Source: an uncultured archaeon (GTDB taxonomy: Archaea; Asgardarchaeota; Thorarchaeia; Thorarchaeales; Thorarchaeaceae). Taken from it: a stretch of 19,710 bases of DNA. Positions 1-18,386 of this stretch are shown here, in pieces. Position numbers and translations under genes: made by a program. The stretch covers positions 1 to 19,710 of the forward strand of contig CAZPWM010000057.1 of NCBI GenBank assembly GCA_964590575.1, read 5' to 3'. Below the pieces are notes generated by a model, which did no database searches, was not told the DNA's origin, and saw only the letters and a program-made list of their open reading frames with translations. How positions within the stretch are numbered: position 1 is the stretch's first letter; every line of letters begins with the position of its first letter.

Positions 1-143
1 AGGGTGTACTGTACAAGAAATATCACAACAGGTAGGAGAGGAAGAGCAGCACACAATACCGCACCAAAGATCATCTTCTTCCTTACTGATCTTCGGAGTG
101 CTTGTTCAATGTCTGATTCAGAGTCGCTATGTAACTCTTCCAC
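1..143 (-). CDS. Hypothetical membrane protein, 5' part only (runs off the window edge); putative fourth cassette gene
   Basis: Manual translation from GTG at 143: (M)EELHSDSESDIEQALRRSVRKKMIFGAVLCAALPLLPVVIFLVQYT... Acidic N-terminus, basic patch, then a hydrophobic TM segment, the same layout as the 247..702 protein. Not in the ORF track because it is truncated. Start codon uncertain. Confidence 0.6.
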   Translation of the reverse strand, partial: MEELHSDSESDIEQALRRSVRKKMIFGAVLCAALPLLPVVIFLVQYT

Positions 144-211
144 GATGAATCCCAACCAACACGTACAAGCAGGCATGTAGTAAGATAAGGTTTGGCGAGA
201 GTGAAATGAAA

Positions 212-234
212 TAGTAAGTGGGGTGTGATTCGAA
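212..234 (-). repeat. Degenerate copy of the tRNA-Ala 3' end (att-like repeat R3)
   Basis: + strand tagtaagtggggtgtgattcgaa vs R2 tggtggaccgggcgtgattcgaa: 16/23 ungapped, 6 of 7 differences are transitions. Intergenic, 12 bp past the stop of 247..702. Confidence 0.6.
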
Positions 235-246
235 CAGCAAAACCGT

Positions 247-702
247 CTACTGATTGGAGGATGTAATGGTTTCCCAAAGGTTCGATATGAACATCCAAGC
301 AAGCCCGAACCCAACAAGAGAAAACGACAAGCCCAATGGTATAGCAATAAGCCGTAGAGATGAGCCAATGAATCCAATTACAAATCCGTAGATTGATGGT
401 GCGGTAGCAAAAACGTACAAGAGAATAGCTGGAGCCATAATATTGTCCAACTCCGGGTTCTTTCCGAAGTGACGGTAGAACACATAGAGGAGCAGAAGCT
501 CAACGGGCATCAGAAGTATCAGCAGCCATGATAACACCTCAATTGGACCAGTGCTAGCTGGAAGTTCAGTGTCTGGTATTAGAAGAATGACAAAAGGCAG
601 CACTATGGAATAAGCTAAGAATACAATCCCTAGCAGTCTGGCTTTTCTGAGAGATGACTCGTTTTCTGGCTTCTCCGTTTCCATTTGAATCGCATTATCC
701 AT
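247..702 (-). CDS. Hypothetical 4-TM membrane protein (151 aa)
   Basis: ORF with four hydrophobic stretches (LLGIVFLAYSIVLPFVILLI, VLSWLLILLMPVELLLLYVFY, AILLYVFATAPSIYGFVIGFIG, LIAIPLGLSFSLVGFGLAWMFI). No family recognised. Confidence 0.8.
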   Translation of the reverse strand: MDNAIQMETEKPENESSLRKARLLGIVFLAYSIVLPFVILLIPDTELPASTGPIEVLSWLLILLMPVELLLLYVFYRHFGKNPELDNIMAPAILLYVFATAPSIYGFVIGFIGSSLRLIAIPLGLSFSLVGFGLAWMFISNLWETITSSNQ

Positions 703-771
703 CGTGATTTTGGTTTAAGTACTTCTCTTCTGATGAAAACAGGTCACTATGGAGTTATATGAAGAATTAGA

Positions 772-796
772 TGGTGGACCGGGCGTGATTCGAATT
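772..796 (-). repeat. Near-perfect copy of the tRNA-Ala 3' end (att-like repeat R2)
   Basis: + strand tggtggaccgggcgtgattcgaatt vs 2519-2543 tggtggaccgggcgagattcgaatt: 24/25 identical. Covers the T-loop, 3' T-stem, 3' acceptor strand and ACCA. Confidence 0.93.
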
Positions 797-851
797 TGAA
801 TCGGGCTCTTAAGAGAAGGTATATCTCTATTCACACGAATAATCCACTGAG

Positions 852-1136
852 ATGAATTCCAATACGGATTACCCAAAGAAGGGAGAATACGGTTCTACAA
901 CCGAGAGATGCCGCTGGTGTGGTAAAGAAGACCGGCATTTCCAGGGTGTCTATTGCTCAAGAAAATGTGCTGCTGCCGGTTCGTTCTATACATTCGCTTG
1001 TATGACACTCATTTTTTTGACACTGACCTTGTGGGCTCTAATCTCATTCGACGTACTTTGGATTGTGGTCTTCGGGATTTTCAGTAGTATATTAGTCTAT
1101 TACCTATATGTTGGAGCTAGAATGAGAAAGAACTAG
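852..1136 (+). CDS. Small Zn-finger membrane protein (CxxC...YCSxxC plus 2 TM; TRASH/DUF2116-like architecture)
   Basis: CRWCG...YCSRKC motif followed by two hydrophobic helices and a basic C-terminus. Confidence 0.75.
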   Translation: MNSNTDYPKKGEYGSTTERCRWCGKEDRHFQGVYCSRKCAAAGSFYTFACMTLIFLTLTLWALISFDVLWIVVFGIFSSILVYYLYVGARMRKN

Positions 1137-1164
1137 CGCTTAGTTCCATTATTATTGAAAAATG

Positions 1165-1186
1165 CGGTGGGCTGGGCGAGATTCGA
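1165..1186 (-). repeat. Copy of the tRNA-Ala 3' end (att-like repeat R1)
   Basis: + strand cggtgggctgggcgagattcga vs 2519-2540 tggtggaccgggcgagattcga: 19/22 ungapped. Intergenic. Confidence 0.85.
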
Positions 1187-1292
1187 TATATGTGCCATCT
1201 TGGTTCTTATCTGAGTCTAGTTTCCATTAGTCATGCTTCTTGGGGTATCCTAGTACACTGAGGGGGAGTACGCTCTCCACTGGCTCTCAATA

Positions 1293-2417
1293 TTATTCTC
1301 TCTCAAACTGTATACATTTCACTTTTCCTTTCAACCCAGCCACTAAACAACGGTTGCAAGATATGCAACGAGCAGGTTCCTGTTTGCTAATTTTCGTTTC
1401 TTCAGTCCACCGTTGCAAAAGTGCTGGTTCACTAATCAATGGACGACTGAGCTGAATTACATCGAAAGCAGCTGCGGAGTTTCCATCTCCCATTAGTAGC
1501 TTAACGACTGTCTCCGGAGATCGGATACCACCCACCAATCCGAATAAGAGACCACTGTCATGTGCAATCGAACGGATAAGCATTGCATCATCCAAGAAAT
1601 ACGCCTCCCCTGCATCTTTCGGGCTCTGAGTTGGGTTGGGACCACTGAATATCACACAATATGCCCCTGCCTCTGCGAGTTTCTTCGCCAACTCACCCAC
1701 TTCTTCGGGTCTGACGGTTTTCGAGCTTGAATCCACCTTTACTTGGATTGGAACATCGACCGCACTTTTAACAGCTCGTACAGCATCCACCATTGCTTTG
1801 CAGCGTCCTTCGATTGTTGATCCTGTGTATGGGTCATTCACTGCGCGCTTATTGTACGTTGGGTCAAAGAATTGCCAAAGGCCATAATTATGCGCTCCAT
1901 GAAGTTCAATCACATCAAATCCCGCTTCAACTGCGCGCTTCGCCGCATCTGCATAAGCCTGAGTGACCTTTTCAACATGGCCCACTGTCATTGCCTTTAC
2001 CTGAACAACATCACCCTTAGGATCAAGGAATTCCATATCACTAGGTCCATATACATCGTTGCCAGAATACTTCGGCAAACTCGTACTTCCACAATGAACC
2101 AATTGAGCTGCTGCTAAACTCCCCGAAGAATGAATAATCCCGGCCAGGCGTTTTAGACCTTCAACATCTGAGGGCTTTGAATTCGAAACCATACGCCGAA
2201 TTGATTGTCCTTCATACATTACATATTGAAAACCAGTTACCACGACACCTGCTCTAATTTTACTATATGTTTCAATAATCGTGTCTCCAATGATTCCATT
2301 TTCTTCTGCCTGCCCCATCCAAGTAGCAGCCCTCATAATTCGGTTGGAGGCAATCTTTCCATTTGGCAATTCGAGTTTCTGGAGCACCGTGTTCTCCCAT
2401 GTCTCTTGGTCTACCAT
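1293..2417 (-). CDS. NADH:flavin oxidoreductase, Old Yellow Enzyme family, with C-terminal Cys cluster
   Basis: NRIMRAAT, AQLVHCG, AAKRAVEAGFDVIELHGAHNY, VGGIRS, LSRPLISEP, C-terminal CISCNRC...C. Confidence 0.92.
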   Translation of the reverse strand: MVDQETWENTVLQKLELPNGKIASNRIMRAATWMGQAEENGIIGDTIIETYSKIRAGVVVTGFQYVMYEGQSIRRMVSNSKPSDVEGLKRLAGIIHSSGSLAAAQLVHCGSTSLPKYSGNDVYGPSDMEFLDPKGDVVQVKAMTVGHVEKVTQAYADAAKRAVEAGFDVIELHGAHNYGLWQFFDPTYNKRAVNDPYTGSTIEGRCKAMVDAVRAVKSAVDVPIQVKVDSSSKTVRPEEVGELAKKLAEAGAYCVIFSGPNPTQSPKDAGEAYFLDDAMLIRSIAHDSGLLFGLVGGIRSPETVVKLLMGDGNSAAAFDVIQLSRPLISEPALLQRWTEETKISKQEPARCISCNRCLVAGLKGKVKCIQFERE

Positions 2418-2518
2418 TGAATCAACTCACATCTCTCAATTTTCTACGCTCGAGAGGTAGGTCTTTCAGCTTTATTTCATCTGAGTATATAGGCTTGATG
2501 TGATAACATTAGAAGAAA

Positions 2519-2626
2519 TGGTGGACCGGGCGAGATTCGAATTCGCGCTCCGTGTGGTAATCACAGCAGAGTCTCGCGACCTCCTCCATGCCAAGGAGGC
2601 GATCTACCGGGCTGATCTACCGGCCC
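2519..2626 (-). tRNA. tRNA-Ala(GGC), CCA encoded, with a 31-nt intron at position 53/54
   Basis: Reverse complement folds as GGGCCGG-TA-GATC-AGCCCGGTA-GATC-G-CCTCC-TTGGCAT-GGAGG-AGGTC-GCGAG-[intron]-TTCGAAT-CTCGC-CCGGTCC-A-CCA. 77 nt after splicing. G3:U70 alanine identity pair present. Confidence 0.96.
2542..2572 (-). other. tRNA intron (31 nt) with relaxed bulge-helix-bulge motif
   Basis: ACTCTGCTGTGATTACCACACGGAGCGCGAA. Central 4-bp helix CGCG/CGCG, bulges AG|A and AA|T each cut after the second base, intron stem CTCTG/CGGAG plus TGTG/CACA. Removal restores a perfect T arm. Confidence 0.9.
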
Positions 2627-2736
2627 ACGGGTGTGCACATGTCGTGCGGTTCGCTAAGCTGGATGAAACGGTTAAAAGAATTGTGGAGTGATAGCAGCAA
2701 TTAAGAGCCTGTATAATCACGATGTAATGTGGAATT

Positions 2737-3012
2737 ATGCTGACTCAAGCTTCGCTCATGGAATGGATAGGTTCAAACCTAGCATACATGATGTTCGCAT
2801 TTTCAATGCTTTTCGTCATTATTCTGATCATCTACATCAAACTCTATGTTCGGATTTTCTACGAAGGGACACTCTATAGACACTATCGCAAAGGCAGGTT
2901 ACTAACAGAAAACGATCAGGGAGGAATGGTTGCACTTATTCCCTTCTTTGACAGACTTGAAGTGTTTGACAGAGAATCCACTGAATTCGATGAAAACCCT
3001 GATGAAACATAG
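2737..3012 (+). CDS. Small membrane protein resembling only the N-terminal part of SPFH/stomatin (band 7) proteins
   Basis: TM helix followed by VRIFYEGTLYRHYRKGRLL...GGMVALIPFFDRLEVFD, similar to the stomatin N-terminal pattern (IV..YERGVIFRLGR...GPGL..IIPFID...VD). Ends in an acidic tail. Confidence 0.6.
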   Translation: MLTQASLMEWIGSNLAYMMFAFSMLFVIILIIYIKLYVRIFYEGTLYRHYRKGRLLTENDQGGMVALIPFFDRLEVFDRESTEFDENPDET

Positions 3013-3018
3013 AAACTA

Positions 3019-3207
3019 TCATCCACGAACGCGAATTCCGTGAACTTTCTTGTGCGCCCAATTATACTGGCGGAGCTTTGCTGAGTCACCAAATCCACAG
3101 GCCGCACATGCCTTGTGTCGAACGTGATAGGACCTTCTCCCGCATCTCCTGCATCGTATATGGTGTGGGTTGTTTTTCTTACCCTTGGAGGGTGTGCCTT
3201 TAGTCAT
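3019..3207 (-). CDS. rpl37e: 50S ribosomal protein L37e
   Basis: [25 protein letters not shown]...CAACGFG; directly downstream of lsm, as is typical in archaea. Confidence 0.98.
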
Positions 3208-3225
3208 CGTTGTTTGCTCCTTGGA

Positions 3226-3471
3226 TTACTTTGGCGGGGGTGAAACGATCACAACGTTGTCGCCTCTCACTATCACAGTTTTGACTACCTCGATTATCTG
3301 TTCCCCTGTTTCAGGATTGAGTGAGATTTCCTCAGCATCCTCGAGGATGAGGTTCAAGTGCTGGTCATAGCCACGCAGTTTTCCCTTGATCTTTTTCTTC
3401 CCTTTCAGCTCAACAAGAACCTGAGCGCCAAGCGATTGCTGAAGTAGTTCCATGGGCCTGCCTGCGGTCAT
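3226..3471 (-). CDS. lsm: Sm-like archaeal protein (Lsm/SmAP1)
   Basis: Sm1 motif VLVELKG..IKGKLRGYDQHLNLILEDAEE and Sm2 motif IVRGDNVVIVSP. GGTGA RBS upstream. Confidence 0.97.
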   Translation of the reverse strand: MTAGRPMELLQQSLGAQVLVELKGKKKIKGKLRGYDQHLNLILEDAEEISLNPETGEQIIEVVKTVIVRGDNVVIVSPPPK

Positions 3472-3630
3472 TCTATCACCATCACAGAATCTACACCATG
3501 TGGCCGAGGGTCACAGGATGTCCGGCCTACCCTTTGGACTTAACTTAAAAACATGACGATGTTGACGACGTATTTTGATGGCTTCTTCATGGCGTAGGCT
3601 TCAAAAGGGGTGTACACTAACTATTACACG

Positions 3631-4137
3631 ATGCCAAAGATAGAACGTATCAAGAAGCGACATCTCCTCAAGAAACGCGAGCAAAGGGATGAGATTGCTA
3701 AGATTGAGCAAGAGATAGGCTCATCGATCAGTGGTTTAGATACGAAAGCACACCTTGAGGGTGGGGTACTAGACGACGGGTCCCGAATCCTTCTTCTTGA
3801 TGGTGATATTATCTTCTTCCAACACGAGGGCCGCATGTTCCCAGCCCTTCGAGCACTCCTCAATGGTCTAGTAGATGTCCCTCGAATTACTGTTGATATG
3901 GGCGCTGTGAAGTACGTGGTCAATGGTGCGGACATTATGCGTCCCGGTATTACACAGGTGGATGACAGAGTAAAGGAAAACGGGATAGTTGTAGTAGTCG
4001 ACGAGAATCATGGTAAGCCACTTGCAGTAGGGATATCCAAGCTGTCTGCAGAAGAGTTGAAAGCTGCTACCAGTGGGAAAGTCATCAAGTCAATTCATCA
4101 CATCAATGATGACCTCTGGGTCTTTGGTAAGTCTTAA
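3631..4137 (+). CDS. PUA-domain RNA-binding protein (DUF1947+PUA, MCTS1/Tma20-like)
   Basis: FPALRALL, ITVDMGAVKYVVNGADIMRPGI, KPLAVG, GKVIKSIHHINDDLW. ATG at 3631 preferred over GTG at 3610. Confidence 0.93.
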   Translation: MPKIERIKKRHLLKKREQRDEIAKIEQEIGSSISGLDTKAHLEGGVLDDGSRILLLDGDIIFFQHEGRMFPALRALLNGLVDVPRITVDMGAVKYVVNGADIMRPGITQVDDRVKENGIVVVVDENHGKPLAVGISKLSAEELKAATSGKVIKSIHHINDDLWVFGKS

Positions 4138-6791
4138 TCCACCTCCTCATCAAATTTTGCTCGAATATGTGACAAAGCTGCCTTGTAGACCTCTTTCGCA
4201 AGTTCGGGTTCCAGTCCACAGTTCTTTGCGAATCGGTCTCTTGCATACCCCTCCTTACTGGCGCCGAGGTCTTTCTTGACAACAACCGAGATTGACGTGT
4301 ACCCTTTTTCGTAGAGAGTCCTTGCTTTACTTCTTGAGAGTCTACCAGAGGGTGAATCATCCCCAGGGAGTAGACGTAATTCAAGAAGGTCTGAGTCAGC
4401 CAGATCTTTTCCTACACCATATTGAAGCTGTCTGGAGAGTGCACTCATTCGATTCGCTAGATTAGTCCTTCTTATTGTCATGAGGTACTGACCGATACTT
4501 TCTGCAACTCTACTGCAAATTCCAAGTAAAGAGTTAAGATCCCCTTCATCAAGACTGATCCCCCTCGCCATCTCAGCAGCGTTTTTCACAATAGTCGTCA
4601 CATCTTGTTCGTTCAACCAGTTCTCAAGTACCGCTCTCTTCACATCATGTCTTTCAGGCAATCTCCGAACATACCACTCTTCCGGTGGGTCTAATCCCAT
4701 CAGTTTGAGCTCCATCTTAGATGGAACAGACGTTCTTGGCCTGATAGACTGTGGTAGCTGGGTCTGTAGCAAGAGGTCTATCATGACTGGCTCATCAGAG
4801 TCATCATTAATCTTGGATAGGCTCTCCCTAATCCGTAGATAGTCACTGATGTCAAGATTTGCATGAACTGCACTACGTGCATCCTTTGACAATCTGAAAT
4901 CGCTTTCAACCTTCTCAAACACATCCTGCTTCACTAGCCAGTTAAAAAGAGTCTTGAAGAACTTCCTCATACCCGAACGGTATTCATTATCAATTGTTCC
5001 TCTAAATGTGCTATCTACAAATTTCAGAAAATCAGTTCTTAGTTGGTCCTGCGTGAACTTCTTTCCATCGACAGTGGCCCTCGTAAGAATGCTTATTGCC
5101 AAACTTGGATATAATATCCCCGGTCGTAGTGGCTTGAGAGGTCGATGAAGCAGTTTTTCTTTCATAGCTTGGGCATTAGGTATATTTCTATTAGGTCCTT
5201 CAAAAACTAGGTATACCCTGCCTCCATATTGAGCTAGATGATTCTCACCTATTCTCCCCGCAACCTGAAGGTACCTTGCTCTTGTTTCAAGATAGTATAG
5301 GTTCTGGTTCAGAAGTATTATTACAGAGTCAAATGGGAAGCTGATACCCGCCGTGATGCCTGTTGTCGATACAACCGTTCTGATTGTCTTATTCCTAATC
5401 TCCCGTTCCAATCGTTCACGAACTCCTGCATCGACACCTGAGTGATGGAATGCCGCTCCAAATTTTAAAGTTTCAGCAAGTCTATTACTCAGTGGTAGAT
5501 TCTCACCTAGCCCTATAACCCTGTCAACAACATCTGGTTTCACAGTTCGAGGATGACTTCTTGCTAGTCTTCGAGCTATTCCTTGAGCTCTGAATCTTGA
5601 TCCCACGACCACAAGTATCGACTTGTTCTGGTAGTCCTTGAGATGGTCTATCACAACGTCAAGTACATCCTCCTGTGACGAACTTGCTCGTTGAGTCCCA
5701 TCACTGCTCACTATCTCAAATTGGTCATTGACCATGTTCACTATGAACTCGTCTGGAACAAGTCGTACACTTGGTCTAAATACCTGAGCATCGAGCCAAT
5801 CAGTCACCTCTTCAGTTTCACCAAAACGAGAGGAAAGAGTCACTATCTGAGTTCGTTCTTTCAAGAGAGTGATGATACTGTCCAGCTTTGTACTACGGTC
5901 TGTTCCCAAGGTATAAGCTTCGACCTCAGTATTAGAATCGAGCTCTGTGAGTTCATCAACTATAGTAAGTCCTATGTTCTCAGTCCAACTTTTTTTCTGC
6001 AACATCGCAGCTGAGAATGACTCATACATGGCAATAATCAGATTTCCATTCTCTAGTTCCGAATCAGTCGCTATGCTGAGACCGTCATGTCGAACCACAG
6101 AGTAGCCTAGTTCTCGGAGGAGGGTGCCATATTCCTCAACAATCTGTCTACTCAAGGAGGTGTAAGGACTAAGATAGAGACATCGGATTCCTTTCTGGAG
6201 TTTCAACAATATGATTATCATAGCAAGAAACGTTTTTCCTGAACCAGGAGGCATCTGGATGACCAAGTTTCCTTCTACATCTCCAATCTCTTGTACAAAT
6301 TTCTCCTGAGCGGGGAGTAGACTCACGAAGTTCTTGTGTTTCAGGAGAATCTTTGCAGCCCTCTGGACATCTGTGCCTGTTCCAATAGGTCCACTTAATT
6401 TGCCAATAGCTGCTAATGCAAGCCTGCCCTCATGAGTAATCATGAAACCTCTCTGCTTTCTCCCCTTATCCCCCGTCGAAATCACAAAACCCGCACGTAT
6501 GAGCTTGTTCATAGTTTCGTATATTGTCCCACCTGACATGAGACTCTGGCGAAGACTCTCATAGTCGACCTGCGTCTGTGTTCGCTCTCCTTTTAATTTG
6601 GAAGATGGTTTGATGATTCCATCAAGATCCAACATACCTTCAACAATGCTGTCCCATCCATGAATTGGCACAATCTCTCCTGTCTGAGGACTCAATACCT
6701 GAAGAATCTCCATGGCATGACGATTGCTAAGAGCTTTAAGCTGGTCTCTCATTCTAGAGAGGTCGTCATCCTCCTTCCTCAATGTAGACAT
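4134..6791 (-). CDS. Divergent Ski2/Hel308-like SF2 helicase with N-terminal winged-helix extension
   Basis: Q motif LLPAQ, motif I MPPGSGKT, Ia SPYTSLSRQ, II VDELT, FHHSG, V STTGITAGISFP, VI QVAGRIG, C-terminal QLQYGV and KARTLYEKGY. ATG at 6791 has a GGTGA RBS (ORF track starts at 6803). Confidence 0.88.
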   Translation of the reverse strand: MSTLRKEDDDLSRMRDQLKALSNRHAMEILQVLSPQTGEIVPIHGWDSIVEGMLDLDGIIKPSSKLKGERTQTQVDYESLRQSLMSGGTIYETMNKLIRAGFVISTGDKGRKQRGFMITHEGRLALAAIGKLSGPIGTGTDVQRAAKILLKHKNFVSLLPAQEKFVQEIGDVEGNLVIQMPPGSGKTFLAMIIILLKLQKGIRCLYLSPYTSLSRQIVEEYGTLLRELGYSVVRHDGLSIATDSELENGNLIIAMYESFSAAMLQKKSWTENIGLTIVDELTELDSNTEVEAYTLGTDRSTKLDSIITLLKERTQIVTLSSRFGETEEVTDWLDAQVFRPSVRLVPDEFIVNMVNDQFEIVSSDGTQRASSSQEDVLDVVIDHLKDYQNKSILVVVGSRFRAQGIARRLARSHPRTVKPDVVDRVIGLGENLPLSNRLAETLKFGAAFHHSGVDAGVRERLEREIRNKTIRTVVSTTGITAGISFPFDSVIILLNQNLYYLETRARYLQVAGRIGENHLAQYGGRVYLVFEGPNRNIPNAQAMKEKLLHRPLKPLRPGILYPSLAISILTRATVDGKKFTQDQLRTDFLKFVDSTFRGTIDNEYRSGMRKFFKTLFNWLVKQDVFEKVESDFRLSKDARSAVHANLDISDYLRIRESLSKINDDSDEPVMIDLLLQTQLPQSIRPRTSVPSKMELKLMGLDPPEEWYVRRLPERHDVKRAVLENWLNEQDVTTIVKNAAEMARGISLDEGDLNSLLGICSRVAESIGQYLMTIRRTNLANRMSALSRQLQYGVGKDLADSDLLELRLLPGDDSPSGRLSRSKARTLYEKGYTSISVVVKKDLGASKEGYARDRFAKNCGLEPELAKEVYKAALSHIRAKFDEEVD

Positions 6792-6893: not shown

Positions 6894-7301
6894 GTGTTTA
6901 TTGTGAAGTCTCTATTCAGACGTAACCGAAGTACTGAATCATCTGAGGAAACAACAGTTCAACGAACGCTCCCAAGTCTTGGTCTATTTGGTCCAGTTTC
7001 AGAACGCAAACAATCAGACCCACAGCATGATATCAAAAGACTTGAAGAACTAGAACAAATTTTCATAAGAACCAGAAAACTTGAGTCGCTAGCTGATGTA
7101 CCTGAAATTGTTGGTGAGGTCCGAAGCGGAAACATCGTACTCATTGATATCTCAAAGCTTAATGATGGAAATAATCAATCCCATCTTGAACTCCGACGTA
7201 TTATTGAACGGATACGCGGAGAAACCCGTGGCTACCAGGCTGAAATAGCGCTAGTGAATGATGGTTGTATGATTGTGACTCCCTCATTTGTTAGCTTCTA
7301 G
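6894..7301 (+). CDS. sepF: Cell division protein SepF (archaeal type)
   Basis: C-terminal core EVRSGNIVLIDISKL...LRRIIERIR...IALVNDGCMIVTPSFV. N-terminal amphipathic segment (MFIVKSLFRR) and linker. Confidence 0.85.
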   Translation: MFIVKSLFRRNRSTESSEETTVQRTLPSLGLFGPVSERKQSDPQHDIKRLEELEQIFIRTRKLESLADVPEIVGEVRSGNIVLIDISKLNDGNNQSHLELRRIIERIRGETRGYQAEIALVNDGCMIVTPSFVSF

Positions 7302-7305: not shown

Positions 7306-9219
7306 TTATCTCAATTTTATAGTTTCAGTTACCATTGGTGCTTTCGTTTCTATATTCAGTGCCTTGTGGATAGTAGATGCAAGTCCGATCGTCTTACTTG
7401 CCTCTCCATGACAAACCAATATACGCTCCGGAACTGGATTTACCCTTTTAACAAAATTCAGGATTTGTTTTCTATCAGAGTGACCTGAAAAGCCCTCCAC
7501 AGTTGTCACTTCTAAATTCACTGGAACCACTGTCGTCTGCCCCTCGCGGTTTCTCATATTCACTTCTTTCCACCCTTTCTGGATGCGTCTTCCCATAGTA
7601 CCCTCCCCTTGGTAACTCACGAAACATAGCATATTCTTCTCATCTGGTGCGAGTAGTCTGAAGTAGTCAACACTTGGTCCACCTGCAAGCATGCCTGATG
7701 TAGCCATAATGATACAAGGTTCTGCTTCAACGATCTCTTCGCGGTTATCCGGATGATCAACTTGTACAAATATTTCAGATAGGAATGGATTCACTCCTTG
7801 GTGGAAAATCATCTCGCGTATCTTCTTACTAAGAGCCTCTGGATGAGTGGTATGGATTGCTGTGGCTTGGGCAATCATACCTTCAATGTATACCGGTACC
7901 TTCGGGATTCGTCCCTTTTCAGCTAAGTCTTCAATAACAAGCATGATTTCTTGAGCTCGACCTACCGCAAGAACAGGAATCAACACCTTTCCGCCTCGTT
8001 CCAACGTTCGTTTTAGGATCGAAGCAAACTTACGTTCAACCTCTTGTCGAGGTGGCATTTTGTCTGTTGGGTGTCCATAAGTGCTCTCTATAATGAGGGT
8101 TTCCAATCGTGGAAATGTGAAGGTTGCAGGCTCTAGTAGTCGTGTTCTTCCAAATTTGAAGTCTCCAGTGTAGGCCATATTGTATTGCCCATCACCAATG
8201 TGAAAGTGGACAATGGCTGAGCCTAGGATGTGTCCTGCATTATGAAGTGTGAGTCTGACATCTGGCGCAATATCCGTCACCTCTCCGTAATTAAGCGGTA
8301 TTGTATGGAGGATTGCTTCTTTTACATCACGGTCTCGATACGGTCTGAGTTTGCCTTCTCTTTCTGCAACATCCAGATAGTCAAGTTGGAGAAGCGTTGC
8401 CAGATTGAGAGTAGGGTGAGTCATATAGACTGGTCCACGGTAGCCATATTTGAAGAGAAATGGCACCATACCACAGTGGTCTAAGTGTGCGTGAGTTATG
8501 ACGACGGCATCTAGATTGTCAACGCTGAACTCAGGCATATCAAGACGTGGGAATGCCTTGGAAGGTGTTCCAACGTTGACACCACATTCAATCAGAATGT
8601 TACTCTCAGACGTCTGTAAGAACATACACTGTCTACCCACTTCTCTAAACCCTCCCAAGGCAACGAGTCTTATCCAACCGTTGTTCAGAAGGATGGGTCG
8701 GTGAATTCTCTTACCAATCTCACGAAATGACTTGTTTCGAGTTGCAGCTTCTGACTGGATAATATAACGAATTTGCTTGATAAGTTTGCTCTCAATCGGA
8801 GGGGTTCGCATCACATTAGGTCGCCAAAACGTCTGTCTTGTAATTTCTCTGAGAGTAGTACCACTACGACCTATTACTAATCCCGGTTTTTGAGCCTCAA
8901 TTATCACTTCTCCTCTTGAGATATCAAAGTCAATTGAAGTGATTTCCGCCTCGCTGGGGACAAGTTCTCGAACTGCTTTCTCAGTATCTTCATGAGTTAA
9001 CCTGACTTCAGGAGCTGATCTGACAACAATCCGTTTTCGCAACTTGCGTGCCAATGCCTTAATCTTGTCACCATCATCAAGTAGAATCTTTGGTGCTTTC
9101 GAATAGATAGCTATCTCCGGACCTTCATACTCGACTGAGCTAACAGCTGCTGAGCGAGGTAACGATTTCTTTAGCACCTCACGAATATCAACATATTCTT
9201 CTTCGTCATTGGGTTGCAT
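7306..9219 (-). CDS. fttA: aCPSF1/FttA KH-domain beta-CASP ribonuclease (transcription termination factor)
   Basis: VEYEGPEI, KH motif KPGLVIGRSG, LGGFREVGR, THAHLDH, AGHILGS, ESTYG, FSGHSD, HGE. 637 aa, adjacent to psmB. Confidence 0.97.
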   Translation of the reverse strand: MQPNDEEEYVDIREVLKKSLPRSAAVSSVEYEGPEIAIYSKAPKILLDDGDKIKALARKLRKRIVVRSAPEVRLTHEDTEKAVRELVPSEAEITSIDFDISRGEVIIEAQKPGLVIGRSGTTLREITRQTFWRPNVMRTPPIESKLIKQIRYIIQSEAATRNKSFREIGKRIHRPILLNNGWIRLVALGGFREVGRQCMFLQTSESNILIECGVNVGTPSKAFPRLDMPEFSVDNLDAVVITHAHLDHCGMVPFLFKYGYRGPVYMTHPTLNLATLLQLDYLDVAEREGKLRPYRDRDVKEAILHTIPLNYGEVTDIAPDVRLTLHNAGHILGSAIVHFHIGDGQYNMAYTGDFKFGRTRLLEPATFTFPRLETLIIESTYGHPTDKMPPRQEVERKFASILKRTLERGGKVLIPVLAVGRAQEIMLVIEDLAEKGRIPKVPVYIEGMIAQATAIHTTHPEALSKKIREMIFHQGVNPFLSEIFVQVDHPDNREEIVEAEPCIIMATSGMLAGGPSVDYFRLLAPDEKNMLCFVSYQGEGTMGRRIQKGWKEVNMRNREGQTTVVPVNLEVTTVEGFSGHSDRKQILNFVKRVNPVPERILVCHGEASKTIGLASTIHKALNIETKAPMVTETIKLR

Positions 9220-9978: not shown

Positions 9979-10096
9979 GTCAATTAACTCCGTGTAGGAG
10001 ATGAAATCTAGAGAACTAGTGACAAACTCTCGTCATATTTCTGCCATTTTAAGGTTTTCTCAGTGACCATTGAGCCACCGAAATGACTATCGAGTG

Positions 10097-10903
10097 TTAG
10101 GTCGTATTCCCTTCTAGTGGTTTTGGTCTATCGAAAGTCACTACCAGTTTTACTTCATTAGCATCCTCAAACACTTTCAATGCGTCTGCAGCAATTCCAA
10201 TCTCTGCATACTGAATGTCCTGAACATATCTAGTTTCTTTGGGCAACTCTATAGTGACTACCTTTTTTGCGACTGAGAACTTGAAATCCTCCTCCGGAAG
10301 CCCAGGTACTCGTCTCTTAACGATAGCACGAAGTTTTTCTGATGGATCCGTAATGATGCTTCTCAATGTAACGTCAAAGACAAGAGTTTTTCCAGCAAGC
10401 GGGCTGTTAAAGTCAATTCGAACCTGTCTACCAAGTACAGCTGTAATCACTCCTCGTTCATTTCCAAAAGTAATCTGTTCTCCTTTGACGGGACGAGTCT
10501 TGTGCTTGGCAAGTTTTGTCTTGGCAATCATCTTGACCTTACTTGGGTCTCTTTCACCAGCACCTTTCTCAGGTGGTACTTCAACAGTCTTTGAATCGCC
10601 CACCTTCATTCCGACTAGTTCCTCTTCCAGTGCTCCGAGCAACCAGTTCCTGCCAATCGCCACTAACATTGGCTCGTAGCGGTCATTTTCTTTGAAAATA
10701 CCTGAATCCTTAGCTACTCCTGACATTGTTGTATCAAATACTATTCCGTCGTCCTTTGTAGTAGCGCTATAATCAATATAGACCAGGCTTTTCTCACCCA
10801 CAACAGTTTCACCCTCAGCTGCCGATTTTGTCTTAGCTGGTTTCTTTGCTGTGGCCTTCTTGGCTGGCGTCTTCTTCGACTTTGTCGATTTTTTCTCTGA
10901 CAT
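10097..10903 (-). CDS. slyD: Long-type archaeal FKBP peptidyl-prolyl isomerase (SlyD-like)
   Basis: VFDTT, GMKVGDSKTVEVPPEKGAGER, IDFNSPLAGKTLVFDV, plus C-terminal domain. Lys/Ala-rich N-terminal tail. Confidence 0.93.
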   Translation of the reverse strand: MSEKKSTKSKKTPAKKATAKKPAKTKSAAEGETVVGEKSLVYIDYSATTKDDGIVFDTTMSGVAKDSGIFKENDRYEPMLVAIGRNWLLGALEEELVGMKVGDSKTVEVPPEKGAGERDPSKVKMIAKTKLAKHKTRPVKGEQITFGNERGVITAVLGRQVRIDFNSPLAGKTLVFDVTLRSIITDPSEKLRAIVKRRVPGLPEEDFKFSVAKKVVTIELPKETRYVQDIQYAEIGIAADALKVFEDANEVKLVVTFDRPKPLEGNTT

Positions 10904-10981
10904 ATCTTGTTCCCTCTCGAGACTCCAAGAACACTTCTAACGGCCTCTTTCAGAGTTTCATAAAACCGTTTCCTTGTGGTC

Positions 10982-11578
10982 TTACTTGAGGATTCCTCTC
11001 AGTACTTGTATCTTTTCAAAGAACAAAAATTCCTCCGAAACAGTATCCACCACAAAACCGCACCTATTCATTGTCTGTCGAATTGATTCTACATTCGCAA
11101 GGGTTGAAACAACTACAAAGATACGACCTTCATTCAGAAGATGGTCTGCTGCTTGTCTGACGAATCGTTGAGTAAGTTCAGTTCCAGCCAGTCCCCCTAT
11201 GAGGGCATGGTCCAGATCAGTATGCTCGTCATCTTGTGGTAAATACGGCGGATTGAATACCATAAGTGAGAATTTGACAGAAGACGCTAAAGCACCAAGT
11301 AGGTCTGATTCAACAACGTGGCAGTTATTATACAAATCATTTCTCTTCAGATTCTCCATAGTATTGTGAACTGCTTCAAATGAACTATCGACACTCACAA
11401 TAGTTTGTGCTAGCTTTGCTGCAGTCAGAGTAATGAGTCCTGCTCCGCATCCAACCTCTAGAAATATATCATCCTGCCTGATATCTAAGTTGTCTAAGAG
11501 GAGGTATGTGTCTTCAGAGGGTGGATATACTCCTGGGAAGACAGTGATATTGGGTCTGCCCTCATCCATTATTCTCAC
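10982..11578 (-). CDS. HemK2/Mtq2-like protein-glutamine N5-methyltransferase
   Basis: VYPPSEDTYLL, LEVGCGAG, FNPPYLP. GTG start overlaps the ksgA stop; ATG at 11569 is an alternative. Confidence 0.92.
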   Translation of the reverse strand: MRIMDEGRPNITVFPGVYPPSEDTYLLLDNLDIRQDDIFLEVGCGAGLITLTAAKLAQTIVSVDSSFEAVHNTMENLKRNDLYNNCHVVESDLLGALASSVKFSLMVFNPPYLPQDDEHTDLDHALIGGLAGTELTQRFVRQAADHLLNEGRIFVVVSTLANVESIRQTMNRCGFVVDTVSEEFLFFEKIQVLRGILK

Positions 11579-12441
11579 TCTCGCGGGTCTGGGATGGTGC
11601 CTTCCTCAATCAAAACGAGGAGGATGTCTGAAAGCTTAACCAATTGATCCAGATTGATTGAGCGAAGACGCTCATTACCTGCTATAATACCCCCCAACCG
11701 GAACAGAACCTCATCAGACAAATTCTTGTCGATTCCAAGATTTCGGAACCATATTTGTAATGCCTTTCGTATGTTCTTGTTTGGGTAGGGATAGATACCC
11801 CCAATCATCCAATGAAACACTGAATCGTCTTTTGCGAATAACCCCTCAGTTCGTGGAGTCATCCGCACGACAGTAGAATCCACTGCAGGAGTCGGATAGA
11901 ATAGGTCTGCAGGGACTTCTAAAATCTTCTCCACTTCTGCATAATATTGTACGTTAATAGTAAGCCGAGAATATTCAGAGGTTCCTGGACATGCCACGAG
12001 TCGGGAAGCATACTCCTTCTGATACATCAGGATTGCTTCCTCGTATTTCATCTCTCTCATAATTCTAAATGTGATTTCTGATGAGATGCTGTAGGGAAGA
12101 TTGGCAATTATCTTATTCACTCGTGGTAGGTCTACGGTGAGTGCATCTCCCTCAATAATATCGACATTGGTGAAGTCCTTTAGGGTATCATGTAGAGCTT
12201 TATTCAATCTTGGATCTATCTCTATGACATAGACGTGCTGAGCTTTTTCAGCAATCCGTTTTGTTAGGACCCCGAAACCGCCTCCTATCTCCAAAACATC
12301 ATCTTGCTCAGATAGTTCAGCTAAATCAACAATATCCCTGGCTACACTATGACTGGTCAAAAAGCTTTGTCCGCGTTTCTTCTTAGGTTTCACATTGTAT
12401 CTATTGAGAAGCCAACGAATATCTTCTGACAGAGAGCTCAC
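11575..12441 (-). CDS. ksgA: 16S rRNA dimethyladenosine transferase KsgA/Dim1
   Basis: KKKRGQSFL, VLEIGGGFGVLT, IEID, ANLPYSISS, FYPTPAVDS. Confidence 0.97.
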   Translation of the reverse strand: MSSLSEDIRWLLNRYNVKPKKKRGQSFLTSHSVARDIVDLAELSEQDDVLEIGGGFGVLTKRIAEKAQHVYVIEIDPRLNKALHDTLKDFTNVDIIEGDALTVDLPRVNKIIANLPYSISSEITFRIMREMKYEEAILMYQKEYASRLVACPGTSEYSRLTINVQYYAEVEKILEVPADLFYPTPAVDSTVVRMTPRTEGLFAKDDSVFHWMIGGIYPYPNKNIRKALQIWFRNLGIDKNLSDEVLFRLGGIIAGNERLRSINLDQLVKLSDILLVLIEEGTIPDPRE

Positions 12442-13981: not shown

Positions 13982-15379
13982 TTAGTTGCTGTAGACCGCA
14001 GTCACATCTAATTTTCTACATACACAAGCCAATCCTAGTTTACTTGCGATTGACGGGTCTGTCCTACCATCATCCCCGGAAATTAACTCCTTCACATATG
14101 TTCCACCCTGTACTTTGAAAAAAGCCTCTATACTATCATCATTGAGCTTCCTGAGTCGAATCTCGTGAATCAATTTCTTTCTCACTAGGTCACTTCTTCG
14201 GTGTGAAACTCGAGTCGGTGTTCGTTGATTAATCTCAATCCCCGAGATCTCACCTTCCACTCTAGTAAGCTCAGTCTTTTGTACAGGCCTCTCGGTCTGA
14301 ATCACTGCTAGATATTCCTTGATATTCGAAGACGCATCTTCCTTTAGCCTTTGAGAATGCTCTCGATTTGTTATCTTGAGGTCCTGAACTTTGATACGTT
14401 TCTTAGACTCTTTATTTATTCTCTTCGTGAGTAACGCCAAATCAGGTTTTCTGACATGTGGCTCTGATATTTCTACAACAAAAGGCCTACCTTGTCCTAA
14501 CATGAGAACATCAACATCCTCACGACCAGCTGCATGGAATTTGAATCTCGATCCTCTCAAAAACCGCTGTGCAACATTTCCAACATATTCTGAGATTGAA
14601 TCAGGATACCTTCTTCCTGTTCCTTTGCAGGCTTCACAGCCCCTACCATTGCACTCTTTACAATCCCATCTGCTCTGTGGAATGCCACGAATCAGTTTCT
14701 GATACCTACCGTAGATGAATACTGGATTGATCTGCAGCTGAACATCATCATTCATCATATCATAGAGAAAAACCAGGTGCGGTCGGTCGAATTCTACTTC
14801 CTTCTTCAAGATTTCATGAAGATGCTTTCCAAGCTCTCTACTGAAATCCGATTTGATCGCTTCAGCATGCAATAGTGAATATTTAGCTCTAAGGTCATCT
14901 TGTCTGTCATCAAGGAGGGGGATAGTGATAGTTCCCACCAGAAAGTTGTCAAATTCAACATCTTTGACAAGCTCGGTAGCTTTCTTTGCGGCCGCTCCAA
15001 TTTTATCAAAAATAGATTGCCCCTCTATTGAACAGAGATGACAATCAGCAATCTTTTCATATGTAATGGAATTTTTCTCTGCGATTACCTGTGCTGGTTT
15101 AAACAGACCGTGACCAGCTAATAGCTCGATAATTTTCCTACCCTTCTCTGGATGTTCTGACTTCAATTTATCATCAGCCATCATCGAGAGGACAAGTTTC
15201 AATGAATGTCCTCGTTCGCTATTTGATGTGTTAGTGCTCAACCAAGCAAACTGTCGACCAAGACATCTGTCACAAATAGAGTACTGCTCAAGTATACTAA
15301 TTGCAGTGTCCAATACCCTGTTCTGGATTGGTGTTGTCATCTGTCTTGGCCTCTTGCAGACTGTAATTTCTTGATTCAT
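13982..15379 (-). CDS. pus10: tRNA pseudouridine(54/55) synthase Pus10
   Basis: ICDRCLGRQFA, GRYQKLIRGIPQSRW, FHAAGREDVDV, QRTPTRVSHRR, QGGTYVKELISGD. Start could be 15340. Confidence 0.96.
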   Translation of the reverse strand: MNQEITVCKRPRQMTTPIQNRVLDTAISILEQYSICDRCLGRQFAWLSTNTSNSERGHSLKLVLSMMADDKLKSEHPEKGRKIIELLAGHGLFKPAQVIAEKNSITYEKIADCHLCSIEGQSIFDKIGAAAKKATELVKDVEFDNFLVGTITIPLLDDRQDDLRAKYSLLHAEAIKSDFSRELGKHLHEILKKEVEFDRPHLVFLYDMMNDDVQLQINPVFIYGRYQKLIRGIPQSRWDCKECNGRGCEACKGTGRRYPDSISEYVGNVAQRFLRGSRFKFHAAGREDVDVLMLGQGRPFVVEISEPHVRKPDLALLTKRINKESKKRIKVQDLKITNREHSQRLKEDASSNIKEYLAVIQTERPVQKTELTRVEGEISGIEINQRTPTRVSHRRSDLVRKKLIHEIRLRKLNDDSIEAFFKVQGGTYVKELISGDDGRTDPSIASKLGLACVCRKLDVTAVYSN

Positions 15380-16648: not shown

Positions 16649-17035
16649 ATGGGGGAGGTAACTTCTTTGCCTGAACGAACTTTCACATACAAACAAGTTA
16701 TTGCTGTACGGACAGATCTAGACATGAGTCGAGGAAAAATCGCAGTTCAAGTCGCTCATGGGTCTGTTTCTTCTGCAGAACAGGCAAGAGTACTCAAACA
16801 AGATATCTGGAAAGCATGGTTACGTGAAGGCCAGAAGAAAGTGGCAGTCAAAGTGAGTTCTGAGGGAGAGCTTCTAGAACTAAGACGCCAAGCTATAAAC
16901 CACAGTCTACCATTTGCGCTGATTAGAGATGCAGGAATGACCGAACTACCCCCCGGCACAATTACAGTTCTTGGTATTGGACCTGCTAGAGCCGAGATTG
17001 TCGATGAAGTAACAGGTGACCTCAAACTGTTGTAG
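16649..17035 (+). CDS. pth2: Peptidyl-tRNA hydrolase Pth2
   Basis: KQVIAVRTDLDMSRGKIAVQVAHG, GQKKVAVKV, DAGMTEL, LGIGP, VTGDLKLL. True start may be TTG at 16667 (GGAGGT RBS at 16654-16659). Confidence 0.97.
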   Translation: MGEVTSLPERTFTYKQVIAVRTDLDMSRGKIAVQVAHGSVSSAEQARVLKQDIWKAWLREGQKKVAVKVSSEGELLELRRQAINHSLPFALIRDAGMTELPPGTITVLGIGPARAEIVDEVTGDLKLL

Positions 17036-17045
17036 AGTGAATCCA

Positions 17046-18386
17046 ATGATTGATGCACATCCTCTCGAGAAAGCATTAGGGATGGAGCTCTACTCAACAG
17101 ATTTTCCGGGTATTGGTGGAAGACTGAAACTACGATTCGAGGACTTTGTTGTCGAAGAAATTTCTGCAAATCAGACAACTCTTGGTATTCAAGACTGGCC
17201 TGAGCCAACAGAAACGCCTCAAATTGCTAAAGGCGAGTCGAATAGATTTGTAACATTCACAGTTCAGAAAATGGGTCTTTCAACGATGGATGCTGCAAAC
17301 ATCATAGCTGCAGCTATTAGAATTTCAAGAAACAATGTTACATATGCAGGCCTCAAGGATAAACGTGCCATTACTACCCAATCTATGAGTGTACCCTCTA
17401 CTGCTGTTGAATCTCTTGCTGTATTGGAGTTATCGCGGATTGCAATTCGTGATATTCATTACACACGACATCCGGTACAGATAGGCGAGCTCTGGGGTAA
17501 TCGGTTTTCGATTCTCATTAAGGAAATCGCCTCGGATTGTGATTCAGCTCTTGAAGTAGCGAGCCAGCTCCGGGACCTGACACTGCTGAATTATTTTGGA
17601 GTGCAGAGATTCGGTATCACTCGACCCAATACACATCTAATTGGAAAAGCTCTCTTAAAACGAGATTTTGAAGACGCTATTCGTATTATGTTAACTGCTA
17701 CAAGCGAGTATGAGTCTGAAGAACTAACCAATATCAGATTACAGATATCCGAAAATCTCACCCCTACAGAGAAAATGATAGAGTCTTTTCCAGAGGACAT
17801 GGGTTATGAAAAAGGCGTGATGAGGGAGCTCATGAAACATCCTGGAGATTTCGAGAGAGCAATCAACAAGATTCCTCCAAGGGTTTTAACTCTTCAAGTG
17901 CATGCGTTTCAGTCATATATGTTCAATCGCATTCTCAGTAGACGTGCAAACTTGGGATTGTCTTTGGATAGTCCAGAGGTAGGCGACTTTCTTATCAAAC
18001 TTGATGAGACTCATTCTGGGCGTGATAGTTGGCTCTATGCAACAGAATCCACCCTTGAAGAACGCCAACATCAGGTGGAATCAAAGAGGTACGGACTTGC
18101 TCTGCCAATTCCAGGATACTCAACAAGACTGCCTCCAGTAAAACAATCTGAGATTGTCAAACAAATAATGAAAGATGAGGATATTCGGTTGACTGATTTC
18201 AGAAATCCTAGGGAGAAAGCCTTAGACTCTCCTGGAGGTCTACATCTTGCGTCTATAAAACTCTCAGATTTGGATGTTTCATGCTCTGATAAGGGCTTTT
18301 TGGCACGATTCTCTCTCAGGAAAGGATCCTATGCGACAGTGGTGTTACGGGAGATAATGAAGAACCATCCGATAAACCGAGTTTAG
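17046..18386 (+). CDS. truD: tRNA pseudouridine(13) synthase TruD
   Basis: EDFVVEEI, YAGLKDKRAITTQ, GNRF, NYFGVQRFG, HAFQSYMFN, GSYATVVLREIMK. ATG at 17046 avoids overlap with pth2. Confidence 0.96.
   Translation: MIDAHPLEKALGMELYSTDFPGIGGRLKLRFEDFVVEEISANQTTLGIQDWPEPTETPQIAKGESNRFVTFTVQKMGLSTMDAANIIAAAIRISRNNVTYAGLKDKRAITTQSMSVPSTAVESLAVLELSRIAIRDIHYTRHPVQIGELWGNRFSILIKEIASDCDSALEVASQLRDLTLLNYFGVQRFGITRPNTHLIGKALLKRDFEDAIRIMLTATSEYESEELTNIRLQISENLTPTEKMIESFPEDMGYEKGVMRELMKHPGDFERAINKIPPRVLTLQVHAFQSYMFNRILSRRANLGLSLDSPEVGDFLIKLDETHSGRDSWLYATESTLEERQHQVESKRYGLALPIPGYSTRLPPVKQSEIVKQIMKDEDIRLTDFRNPREKALDSPGGLHLASIKLSDLDVSCSDKGFLARFSLRKGSYATVVLREIMKNHPINRV

Follow-up and report, generated by a model that had tools for sequence, protein, structure and literature searches.

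Among described systems in which small pieces of DNA are stacked or moved without an integrase of their own, the cis-mobilisable elements (CIMEs) of Streptococcus and the satellites of integrative elements are flanked by attachment (att) sites and are mobilised in trans by a known cognate helper integrase, and the dif modules of Acinetobacter plasmids are small gene modules bounded by XerC/D sites and moved by a recombinase encoded elsewhere. In Prochlorococcus, tycheposons form islands beside transfer RNA (tRNA) genes by repeated integration, with partial tRNAs scattered in them (10.1101/2020.12.28.424599). For archaea, tandem integrated elements at one locus have been described (PMC8371274), and a model of tRNA-Thr disruption in Caldiarchaeum has proposed a link between integration, tRNA introns and scattered tRNA fragments (PMC3293823). 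The stretch of DNA analysed here, hereafter the window (W), is 19,710 nt long and comes from an uncultured Asgard archaeon of the Thorarchaeaceae (GenBank assembly GCA_964590575.1, contig CAZPWM010000057.1); it is the whole of contig C57 of the source genome, G000, which comprises 3.40 Mb in 194 contigs at 43% G+C and is 91% complete (G0xx denotes genomes, L0xx fetched loci of relatives, and C a contig of G000). One end of the window is the proximal part of a cassette array anchored on a tRNA-Ala gene, and such arrays are seen genus-wide and at several tRNAs. We give a probability of roughly 60% to the reading that these arrays arose by serial insertion and cassette-wise exchange of units at an att site in the tRNA 3' end.

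The nearest known situation is that of tRNA-anchored islands built by repeated integration. As in tycheposons, the islands lie next to tRNAs, newer elements displace older ones outward, partial tRNAs are scattered, the cargo is adaptive and integrase-bearing elements are rare relative to islands (10.1101/2020.12.28.424599). The elements of Prochlorococcus, however, are several kb long and carry hallmark genes (a tyrosine or large serine recombinase, replication genes), none of which was found here, whereas the units described below have a median length of less than 1 kb, mostly hold one gene, belong to an Asgard host and occur at several tRNAs of one genome. Integrated elements of archaea share with our arrays the duplication of the tRNA 3' end, the tandem arrangement and the loss of the integrase after integration, but they are few and larger and carry a recombinase or a recognisable remnant of one (PMC8371274, PMC3293823); those two papers, in their accessible parts, describe no arrays of up to ten sub-kb units that recur throughout a genus. 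Of the features that define tRNA-integrated islands, the regenerated tRNA and the displaced direct copy of its 3' end are both present, and no internal integrase was found. An earlier note on the window, made from its letters alone, knew of no description of such a system, which was too strong a view given the islands already known to form by repeated integration beside tRNAs (10.1101/2020.12.28.424599; PMC8371274). Single-gene, sub-kb arrays bounded by tRNA fragments were not found for Asgard or other archaea in our literature search, which lay outside subscription papers and supplements. A tRNA-anchored island of very small, recombinase-free units, present genus-wide and at several tRNAs, is a variant on known islands.

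A repeat search of the window revealed one family of direct repeats, at 211-236, 771-796, 1164-1189 and 2518-2543. Its core is a 23-mer that corresponds to tRNA positions T54 to A76 (window 2541 to 2519). The features of the array and its border are as follows, from the anchor outward, with the fixed border last.

2519..2626, minus strand: tRNA-Ala(GGC) with encoded CCA at 2519-2521, the anchor and proximal end of the array (Rfam RF00005 and direct reading)
2542..2572, minus strand: non-canonical 31-nt intron between the T-stem 5' strand (2573-2577) and the T loop (read against intron-less orthologues)
2510..2518, minus strand: pyrimidine-rich trailer behind the CCA (tttcttcta in tRNA sense), part of the conserved site (profile of 62 fragment copies)
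1293..2417, minus strand: cassette 1, Old Yellow Enzyme (OYE) flavin oxidoreductase of 374 aa (PF00724, 2.6e-33); unit 1188-2518
1165..1187, minus strand: fragment copy of tRNA positions 54-76, 19/23 matching (repeat search)
852..1136, plus strand: cassette 2, a 94-aa Zn-ribbon and transmembrane (TM) protein of family F7, without Pfam match and directed opposite to the tRNA; unit 795-1164
772..794, minus strand: fragment copy, 22/23 matching, the single difference (CACGC) being in the T stem
247..702, minus strand: cassette 3, a 151-aa four-helix (4-TM) membrane protein of family F1, without Pfam match; unit 235-771
212..234, minus strand: degenerate fragment copy, 15/23 matching (65%) (repeat search)
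1..200, minus strand: start of cassette 4, family F25, about 230 aa, with the rest on C22 at 3-596 (tblastn matches on both contigs)
C22:618-640: fifth copy, 3 mismatches (core match on the continuation contig)
2737..4137, no strand assigned: conserved housekeeping genes beside the tRNA (for a small membrane protein, L37e, Sm and a PUA protein; Pfam), the fixed border of the variable region

Searched at three mismatches or fewer, the 23-mer matched only at 772 and 2519, with 0.00 matches expected from 200 shuffles. The copy at 1165 has 4 mismatches in 23, for which our own arithmetic gives an expectation of about 4e-4 per window, and the sequence on its 5' side shares homology with the OYE unit of L032 at the distal end of that unit. 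With 8 mismatches in 23, and about 2 such matches expected per window, the copy at 212 is not significant by itself; it was counted because it is placed where homologous units of relatives hold intact copies. It lies 13 nt past the stop of the 4-TM gene, where relatives have good copies, and alignments of units from L017 (2439-3014) and L020 (7068-7644) with W 221-796 reach into it. The recurrence of the tRNA 3' exon at 1165, 772 and 212, on which the earlier note was founded, was thus confirmed, in the case of 212 only via the homologous units of relatives. Every window copy is intergenic and each of the three intervals between copies holds one open reading frame (ORF), for the OYE, Zn-ribbon/TM and 4-TM proteins, also in agreement with that note.

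The anchor was recognised from an Rfam RF00005 match at 2522-2626 on the minus strand (48.7 bits, E 1e-8, in E-value mode) and was identified as tRNA-Ala by direct reading of the anticodon loop UUGGCAU (anticodon GGC), the G3:U70 pair and the encoded CCA. At its intron site, where the Rfam alignment has a 33-nt insertion, the orthologues of L019, L021, L023 and L024 are intron-less. The 3' exon reads TTCGAATCTCGCCCGGTCCACCA, and given the intron at 2542-2572 this exon is exactly the repeated core, as had been proposed. Rfam in gathering mode and ARAGORN both missed the gene at 2519-2626, and ARAGORN with introns allowed labels it, wrongly, as Glu(UUC). The tRNA-Leu at C19:24521 was likewise found by neither ARAGORN nor the gathering mode of Rfam, and tRNA counts for genomes of this kind are likely too low. 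The same unusual intron position, between the T-stem 5' strand and the T loop, was observed in the tRNA-Ala, tRNA-Leu and tRNA-Asp of G000, and the sites noted include W 2542-2572, C19 at about 24544-24575 and 25286-25320, and L013, L018, L025-L027, L029 and L032. These introns have constant ends (GAG|AC...G|CGCGAA) flanking a hairpin whose stem varies between species with compensating changes. The Ala intron sits at the point where the repeated core has its left edge.

The array continues beyond the window. Taken as reverse complement, the first 55 nt of C57 are identical to the start of C22 over its first 55 nt, and a 9092-nt Logan contig of run X1 holds window 1-4200 together with 2574 nt leftward, including a further core copy; X1 is possibly the source sample, and its contig is therefore not independent support. 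Contigs of runs X2 and X5 bridge the 772 copy and the junction of the OYE unit with the tRNA in an identical arrangement. On C22 the rest of the F25 gene is followed by the copy at 618-640, by genes for an aldehyde ferredoxin oxidoreductase, a 4Fe-4S ferredoxin and an M23-type protein, by genes without recognisable copies, and then by a tRNA-Phe at 7185-7293. Leftward extension, which the earlier note had advised, thus added one copy, that at C22:618; distal to it in G000 there is no further copy, the best site having 9 mismatches, which is background. The aldehyde ferredoxin oxidoreductase of G000 (C22 658-2390) is split into frames of 502 and 75 aa, and its homologue at L018, about 90-94% identical, is a single frame of 577 aa, so that the split gene is probably a pseudogene or a sequencing error.

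At up to three mismatches the 23-mer was present in 28 of 28 genomes of the genus (0 for the reversed-pattern control), its matches including other Ala isoacceptor genes. Among relatives, direct arrays reached ten copies in L021, where the array ends in an intron-less tRNA-Ala, with seven copies each in L019 and L029, six in L023, five each in L015, L017 and L020, and four each in L013 and L014. Metagenome contigs held arrays of up to seven copies (L092), and the majority of arrays run into contig ends. Across 77 units from 21 loci, lengths ranged from 275 to 3431 nt with a median of 947 nt, 71% being 1.5 kb or shorter, and ORFs of at least 70 aa numbered none in 12 units, one in 48, two in 15 and four or five in 2; L085 and L092 are alike and possibly represent one organism counted twice in this census, and for loci reached by two routes (for example L019, L050 and L107, which are the same contig) one of each was used. 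That the repeats are chance similarity, or an artefact of metagenome assembly, could draw on the 8 mismatches of the 212 copy, which alone is within chance, and on the position of the window at a contig end. This explanation is already refuted by the expectation of 0.00 for the two best copies, by arrays in 28/28 genomes, on metagenome contigs and in a closed chromosome, and by the X2 and X5 contigs, which bridge the 772 copy and the OYE-tRNA junction.

A scan of the other tRNAs, also suggested in the earlier note, uncovered arrays of their own 3' ends at three tRNA-Leu genes and at tRNA-Thr(UGU). The tRNA-Leu on C19 is followed by four fragments at spacings of 422-627 nt, and each of its units contains a single ORF; G000 has further fragments, also downstream and on the same strand, at Leu-CAG (C4), Leu-UAG (C174) and Thr-UGU (C6). 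In the census as a whole, 11 of 36 tRNAs of G000 had a same-strand downstream match within 10 kb (reversed-core control 0), several of the 11 being neighbouring tRNA genes with similar ends and not fragments; fragments were confirmed by eye for Ala-GGC, for Leu on C19, C4 and C174, and for Thr-UGU, as well as in two series, at C22 27527-30545 and C69 160-2462, that are inverted relative to the nearest matching tRNA. Inverted copies, or whole series inverted with respect to the matching tRNA, were noted at L025 (5883/6161), L026-L029, C22 27120-30545 and C69 160-2462, and in G003 (L031) the tRNA-Phe block and the L37e block lie on opposite sides of tRNA-Ala compared with G000. These arrangements suggest inversions with ends at the copies.

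Comparison of the loci showed the units to act as separate modules. Relatives of F1 were found in the contig database at 11 loci only, all in records with Candidatus Thorarchaeota or Promethearchaeota in the title. At seven of 11 loci examined (W, L014, L017, L019, L020, L021 and L051) the F1 unit is 517-539 nt long with copies on both sides; at the other four (L013, L023, L031 and L048) no bordering copy with up to 6 mismatches was found. The neighbours of the F1 unit differ in each of the six mapped loci (W, L014, L017, L019, L020 and L021). The OYE unit also occurs in L014, L020, L021, L032, L048 and L074 at other array positions. In W and L018 it adjoins the tRNA, in L032 and L074 it comes second, in L021 it lies deep in the array, and in L014 no other unit separates it from the tRNA-Phe block. 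The whole F7 unit is 76% identical to L026 236-649, where copies stand at both ends. Some loci differ by a single unit, as in the F25-F1 order of W against F25-F5-F1 in L014, or in L017, where F1 adjoins a gene for a 339-aa protein, against L051, where an extra unit lies between the two. Alignment of arrays with one another gave 94 homology blocks of 200 nt or longer, and 132 of the 358 block ends fell within 30 nt of a copy edge, compared with 5% of random positions. The gain, loss and reordering of units with breakpoints at the repeats that the earlier note had envisaged were therefore borne out.

Some fragments bear tRNA alleles that are specific to a lineage. In L021 the T loop and T stem of the resident tRNA are derived (TCAAATCCCAC), and this allele is present in 3 of the 9 fragments of that array; the CACGC allele of L023 is present in the two most proximal of its five fragments, and the CTCGT allele of L015 in the most proximal of four. 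Other fragments bear alleles resident in other lineages, among them the window copy at 772, whose CACGC difference is the resident tRNA allele of L023 and L031. Such fragments postdate the alleles or came from other lineages, and are not a single ancestral set. In 37 cassette alignments, the identity of the cassette minus that of the L37e-Sm-PUA flank ranged from -13.4 to +14.1 points. For F9, G014 and G011 share 85.9% identity (flank 71.8%) and G005 and G011 share 71.6% (flank 80.2%); F1 is 87.5% identical between G020 and G012 (flank 77.2%) and 69.0% identical between G020 and G005 (flank 80.4%). This incongruence is suggestive of exchange between species, as judged from identities against a flank of just 1.1 kb and with paralogy possible.

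These modular features bear on an explanation that would need no cassette movement at present, in which larger, integrase-bearing elements integrated serially and each was trimmed by deletion to one or two cargo genes, later differences being the product of deletions and an occasional rearrangement. Such accretion is documented for Prochlorococcus islands (10.1101/2020.12.28.424599) and tandem archaeal elements (PMC8371274), and it would account for the decay of copies in situ, for stretches without copies, for copies that retain long tRNA 3' halves like typical attP sites, and for cargo typical of mobile elements (a DNA methylase fragment, TIR and PLD proteins). We nevertheless consider it unlikely, because the ends of the F1 unit are constant (517-539 nt at 7 loci) while its neighbours are always different, which independent deletions would not be expected to produce, and because the array loci hold no integrase or recognisable remnant of one. 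The largest unit is 3.4 kb and 48 of the 77 units have one ORF, and the young, lineage-specific tRNA alleles in the fragments and the incongruence of cassette and flank identities likewise argue against it.

Under serial insertion and cassette-wise exchange, the att site would consist of tRNA-Ala(GGC) positions 55-76, from the T loop through CCA, and about nine pyrimidine-rich trailer bases. A unit, perhaps once a circle, would bring the same 22-31-nt segment and recombine with the tRNA gene or with an intact fragment. Each insertion would restore the tRNA and leave a displaced copy of the 3' end on the far side of the unit, and successive insertions would pile the units outward. Recombination between copies would reshuffle units, removing them where the copies are direct and flipping the segment where they are inverted. 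Units would also be transferred between species, and disused copies would decay, after which their genes would become fixed. The structure of the arrays, their spread, the modular units and the alleles in the fragments are observations; beyond these we infer a site-specific reaction with its enzyme supplied in trans, a recombinase whose gene lies outside the arrays and would probably reside on an unbinned mobile element.

To describe the repeated site, we aligned 62 fragment copies. The information content was about 0.1 bit per position 5' of T54, 0.5 bit at T54, 1.3-1.9 bits from position 55 to A76, and 0.3-1.1 bit over the first nine bases behind CCA (consensus cTTcTTttt), with 79% pyrimidine in the first 12 nt; the mismatch cut-off used in collecting copies inflates the core values and leaves those of the flanks unaffected. 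The site therefore comprises about 22 nt of tRNA and about 9 nt of trailer. The left edge of identity lies at 54/55 for Ala and Leu, and further 5', so as to include the T-stem 5' strand, for Thr and the C22 series. A few copies retain 30-70 nt of the tRNA 3' half, like the attachment sites of integrative elements, such as the L019 copy at 8946, with a compensated T stem, and the L021 copy at 9912, with an intron-bearing 3' half. No attC-like hairpin was found in the copies with their flanks, the folding z-scores of the ten tested lying between -0.46 and +1.72 against shuffles, and across 79 units the best 14-nt inverted match between unit ends averaged 9.04, as in mismatched pairs, so that terminal inverted repeats are absent.

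In unrelated units the left edge falls at one and the same tRNA position, which favours a site-specific reaction catalysed in trans. With no candidate enzyme found, and no conserved arm next to the core, host homologous recombination stands as a rival, in which, after a few founding integrations, the cell machinery alone would loop out units as circles, re-insert them at any of the identical 22-31-bp copies and swap them against DNA acquired from relatives. Consistent with this, no site-specific recombinase was detectable in G000 at 91% completeness, 19 of 28 genus genomes have no PF00589 match, no arm is conserved 5' of the core (about 0.1 bit), the copies form no hairpins, the units lack terminal inverted repeats, and inverted copies and arrays are known (L025-L029; C22, C69). 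As an account on its own we find it quite unlikely: the constant 5' edge of identity (54/55) in unrelated cassettes of both Ala and Leu is more simply explained by a fixed crossover or site, and the first acquisition of a flanking copy by a new gene is left unexplained. Moreover, in most organisms homologous recombination needs more than 22 bp to be efficient, which may apply to Asgard archaea as well and would then count against this rival.

The same profile speaks to a very improbable alternative in which the copies are no scars of recombination and are selected as RNA or transcription signals, for example as terminators or processing signals, or as spare 3' exons from which a split tRNA would be trans-spliced. 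The copy is the exact 3' exon of an intron-bearing tRNA, a T/C-rich tract follows it, and in co-directional genes such as F1 it stands directly past the stop codon, all of which would fit a signal. The 5' side of the copies is unconserved (about 0.1 bit in the 62 fragments), leaving no splice motif or T-stem partner, and neither the pairing 5' sequence nor the splice motif of a split tRNA was found in what are sequence data only. The folding of all ten copies (z -0.46 to +1.72), the presence of genes in both directions relative to the copies, the decay of copies and the alleles of other lineages' tRNAs that they bear are also at odds with such a role. Reverse transcription primed by the tRNA 3' end was considered as an origin and rejected, as copies occur only beside their own tRNA gene, the trailer is not part of the transcript and the genes face both ways. 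Mechanisms of the Tn7 type, considered from a preprint (10.1101/2025.07.27.667033), and of the casposon type were also rejected: the units lack the terminal inverted repeats and the short target-site duplication of transposons and casposons, and a repeat of 22-31 nt or longer is too long for such a duplication. A scan for sigma-70 promoters and terminators was set aside as inapplicable to an archaeal host.

Several results weigh against serial insertion and cassette-wise exchange. The data are compatible both with a site-specific reaction and with host homologous recombination on 22-31 bp of identity. PF00589 had 0 matches in G000 and matches in 9 of 28 genus genomes, none of them on an array contig; PF16795 had 0 matches; and a profile of 16 tyrosine recombinases of the genus had no match at E<=1, either in the array loci or in the full set of six-frame ORFs from G000. 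The 14 contigs on which the genus has an integrase, taken with up to 20 kb of context, contained no tRNA gene and no convincing tRNA 3' fragment, and neither the Ala nor the Leu site had a match among IMG/VR viral contigs. No circular or excised form and no joint that skips a cassette was seen in the Logan contigs, which were the only material used for this point; they came from four runs, stretches that they leave uncovered were given no weight, and the run labels (salt marsh, sediment) were taken as evidence of habitat for those runs at most. Other results concern the age of the arrays. Decayed copies can still be seen where a unit border would be expected (in L013 at 2294 and, with an indel, at 4113, in L023 at 2847 and in W at 212), and in L013, L023 and L031 cassette families adjoin one another without recognisable copies, so that the pattern is partly old and possibly inactive. 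In the closed Thorarchaeota chromosome G044 an F1 gene lies near tRNA-Phe along with three fragments of Ala type, and no tRNA was detected within 20 kb of the three fragments; together with the decayed copies, this indicates that sites are not kept indefinitely.

The earlier note had advised a search for a tyrosine recombinase at the distal end of the array, and none was found there on C22, in any array or in G000. A tblastn search of G000 with the ORFs of genus integrase loci gave no integrase match. The six loose-motif matches on the 14 integrase contigs include none like a real tRNA 3' end, and L122, obtained with a looser 18-nt Ala pattern, was discarded as a chance match of high G+C, without a tRNA and with the match inside a long ORF. 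Small serine recombinases (PF00239) number one gene in G000, and 8 of 28 genus genomes have matches, none of them with a link to arrays; one such gene on G023:C161, 2 kb from tRNA-Ala, was rejected as a candidate, not being flanked by copies and having no second case. Because the genomes are metagenome-assembled, plasmids and viruses of the same cells may be missing from these searches, and since the 25 commonest of the 64 Pfam families matched by array ORFs were examined, the statement that integrases are absent rests on the PF00589 and profile searches. Loose contig ends at 770-794, 1166 and 2508-2541 are those expected of a repeated 23-mer in unitigs and were not counted as variation. Beside these results we noted L121 (G020:C116, 2736 nt), with three tandem tyrosine recombinase genes and no tRNA nearby, which looks like an element of the recombinase-trio kind or a contaminant. 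At E<=0.01, 19 of 28 genus genomes including G000 are without a PF00589 match, and the Xer-type recombinase of chromosome resolution seems to be missing from these Thorarchaeota or too divergent for detection.

Compared with systems served by a recombinase in trans, the arrays resemble CIMEs and satellites in having recombinase-less, att-flanked units stacked by a tRNA or other anchor, with att sites on both sides; they differ in that a helper is known for CIMEs, and here no helper with a cognate integrase and the same att site was found. They resemble dif modules in that small modules without a recombinase are bounded by short sites, but those are Xer sites with inverted binding arms in alternating orientation, whereas here the sites are direct tRNA fragments and 19 of 28 genus genomes are without a detectable Xer-type enzyme. 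The likeness to integrons, which the earlier note had put forward, includes a fixed anchor, a one-way array of mostly single-gene units with short bounding sites, units that are shuffled, gained, lost and common to several species, and a cargo of accessory enzymes and small uncharacterised proteins. The cassette-like, variable units of that comparison hold up. Its other parts do not: neither an IntI nor any other tyrosine recombinase was found by the anchor or in the genome, nor was a helper; the site, a linear tRNA fragment, forms no attC-type hairpin; gene directions are mixed, which would imply no common promoter; the sites decay in place; and the anchor is an essential tRNA gene that would have to be rebuilt at each event. 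Of four integron features, then, the short, variable and mostly one-gene cassettes were found, and the other three were not (integrase, attC fold and co-orientation). The analogy is functional only, and the array is not an integron in the family sense. More tentatively, and well short of even odds, the arrays may be a cassette platform of Thorarchaeota that arose independently as a counterpart of the integron, with the tRNA as primary site and the 22-nt T-loop-to-CCA segment and trailer as cassette site; single genes would then be captured, reordered and passed among species by a recombinase without kinship to known integrases, or with no dedicated recombinase.

The cargo was surveyed by clustering array ORFs with blastp and scanning them against Pfam. 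Among 87 ORFs scanned, OYE proteins numbered 7, N6/N4 DNA methylase fragments 5, amidohydrolases 4 and FMN reductases 3, with 2-3 each of HTH regulators, AMP-binding enzymes, a class II tRNA-synthetase-like protein and beta-helix proteins; single cases include TIR, PLD, MBL and cupin proteins, and there are numerous small membrane proteins without a family match. Array genes lie on both strands, for example W 852-1136 on the plus strand among minus-strand genes. A paralogue of F7 with 31% identity lies in the tRNA-Leu array at C19:23456-23815. Searching a protein atlas with F1 and F25 yielded only unnamed clusters with TM scores below 0.5, from which no function is derivable. In L021, the unit adjoining the tRNA (10048-11691) encodes a TIR-domain protein and a PLD-family nuclease with the look of a defence pair, and its distal copy is a 70-nt intron-bearing tRNA 3' half of a foreign allele.

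The side of the tRNA away from the array is conserved, and its L37e/Sm/PUA portion was matched in 24 of 24 same-genus genomes compared. To the right of the tRNA lie genes for L37e, Sm, the PUA protein, a helicase, FttA, a proteasome subunit, KsgA, Pus10 and TruD, the remainder of the window being housekeeping genes. Pus10, which modifies tRNA positions 54/55, and TruD (window 13982-15379 and 17016-18386) stand in the housekeeping block of a tRNA, and this closeness is probably a coincidence. With an array G+C of 0.42-0.48 against 0.435 for the genome, the composition profile has no anomaly.

Asgard archaea are studied as the closest prokaryotic relatives of eukaryotes, and little is known of how their accessory genes move. 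The arrays mark to base-pair precision the points where flexible genes of Thorarchaeota enter and leave, these genes encoding flavin oxidoreductases, aldehyde ferredoxin oxidoreductase with ferredoxin, amidohydrolases, regulators, TIR and PLD proteins and small membrane proteins. The arrays also break assemblies, and the location of the array site at a non-canonical intron position bears on the old idea that links integration with the disruption of tRNA genes. If our reading is true, whether with an enzyme acting in trans or with none, the arrays would represent a second, independent solution to the capture and shuffling of single genes beside the integron.

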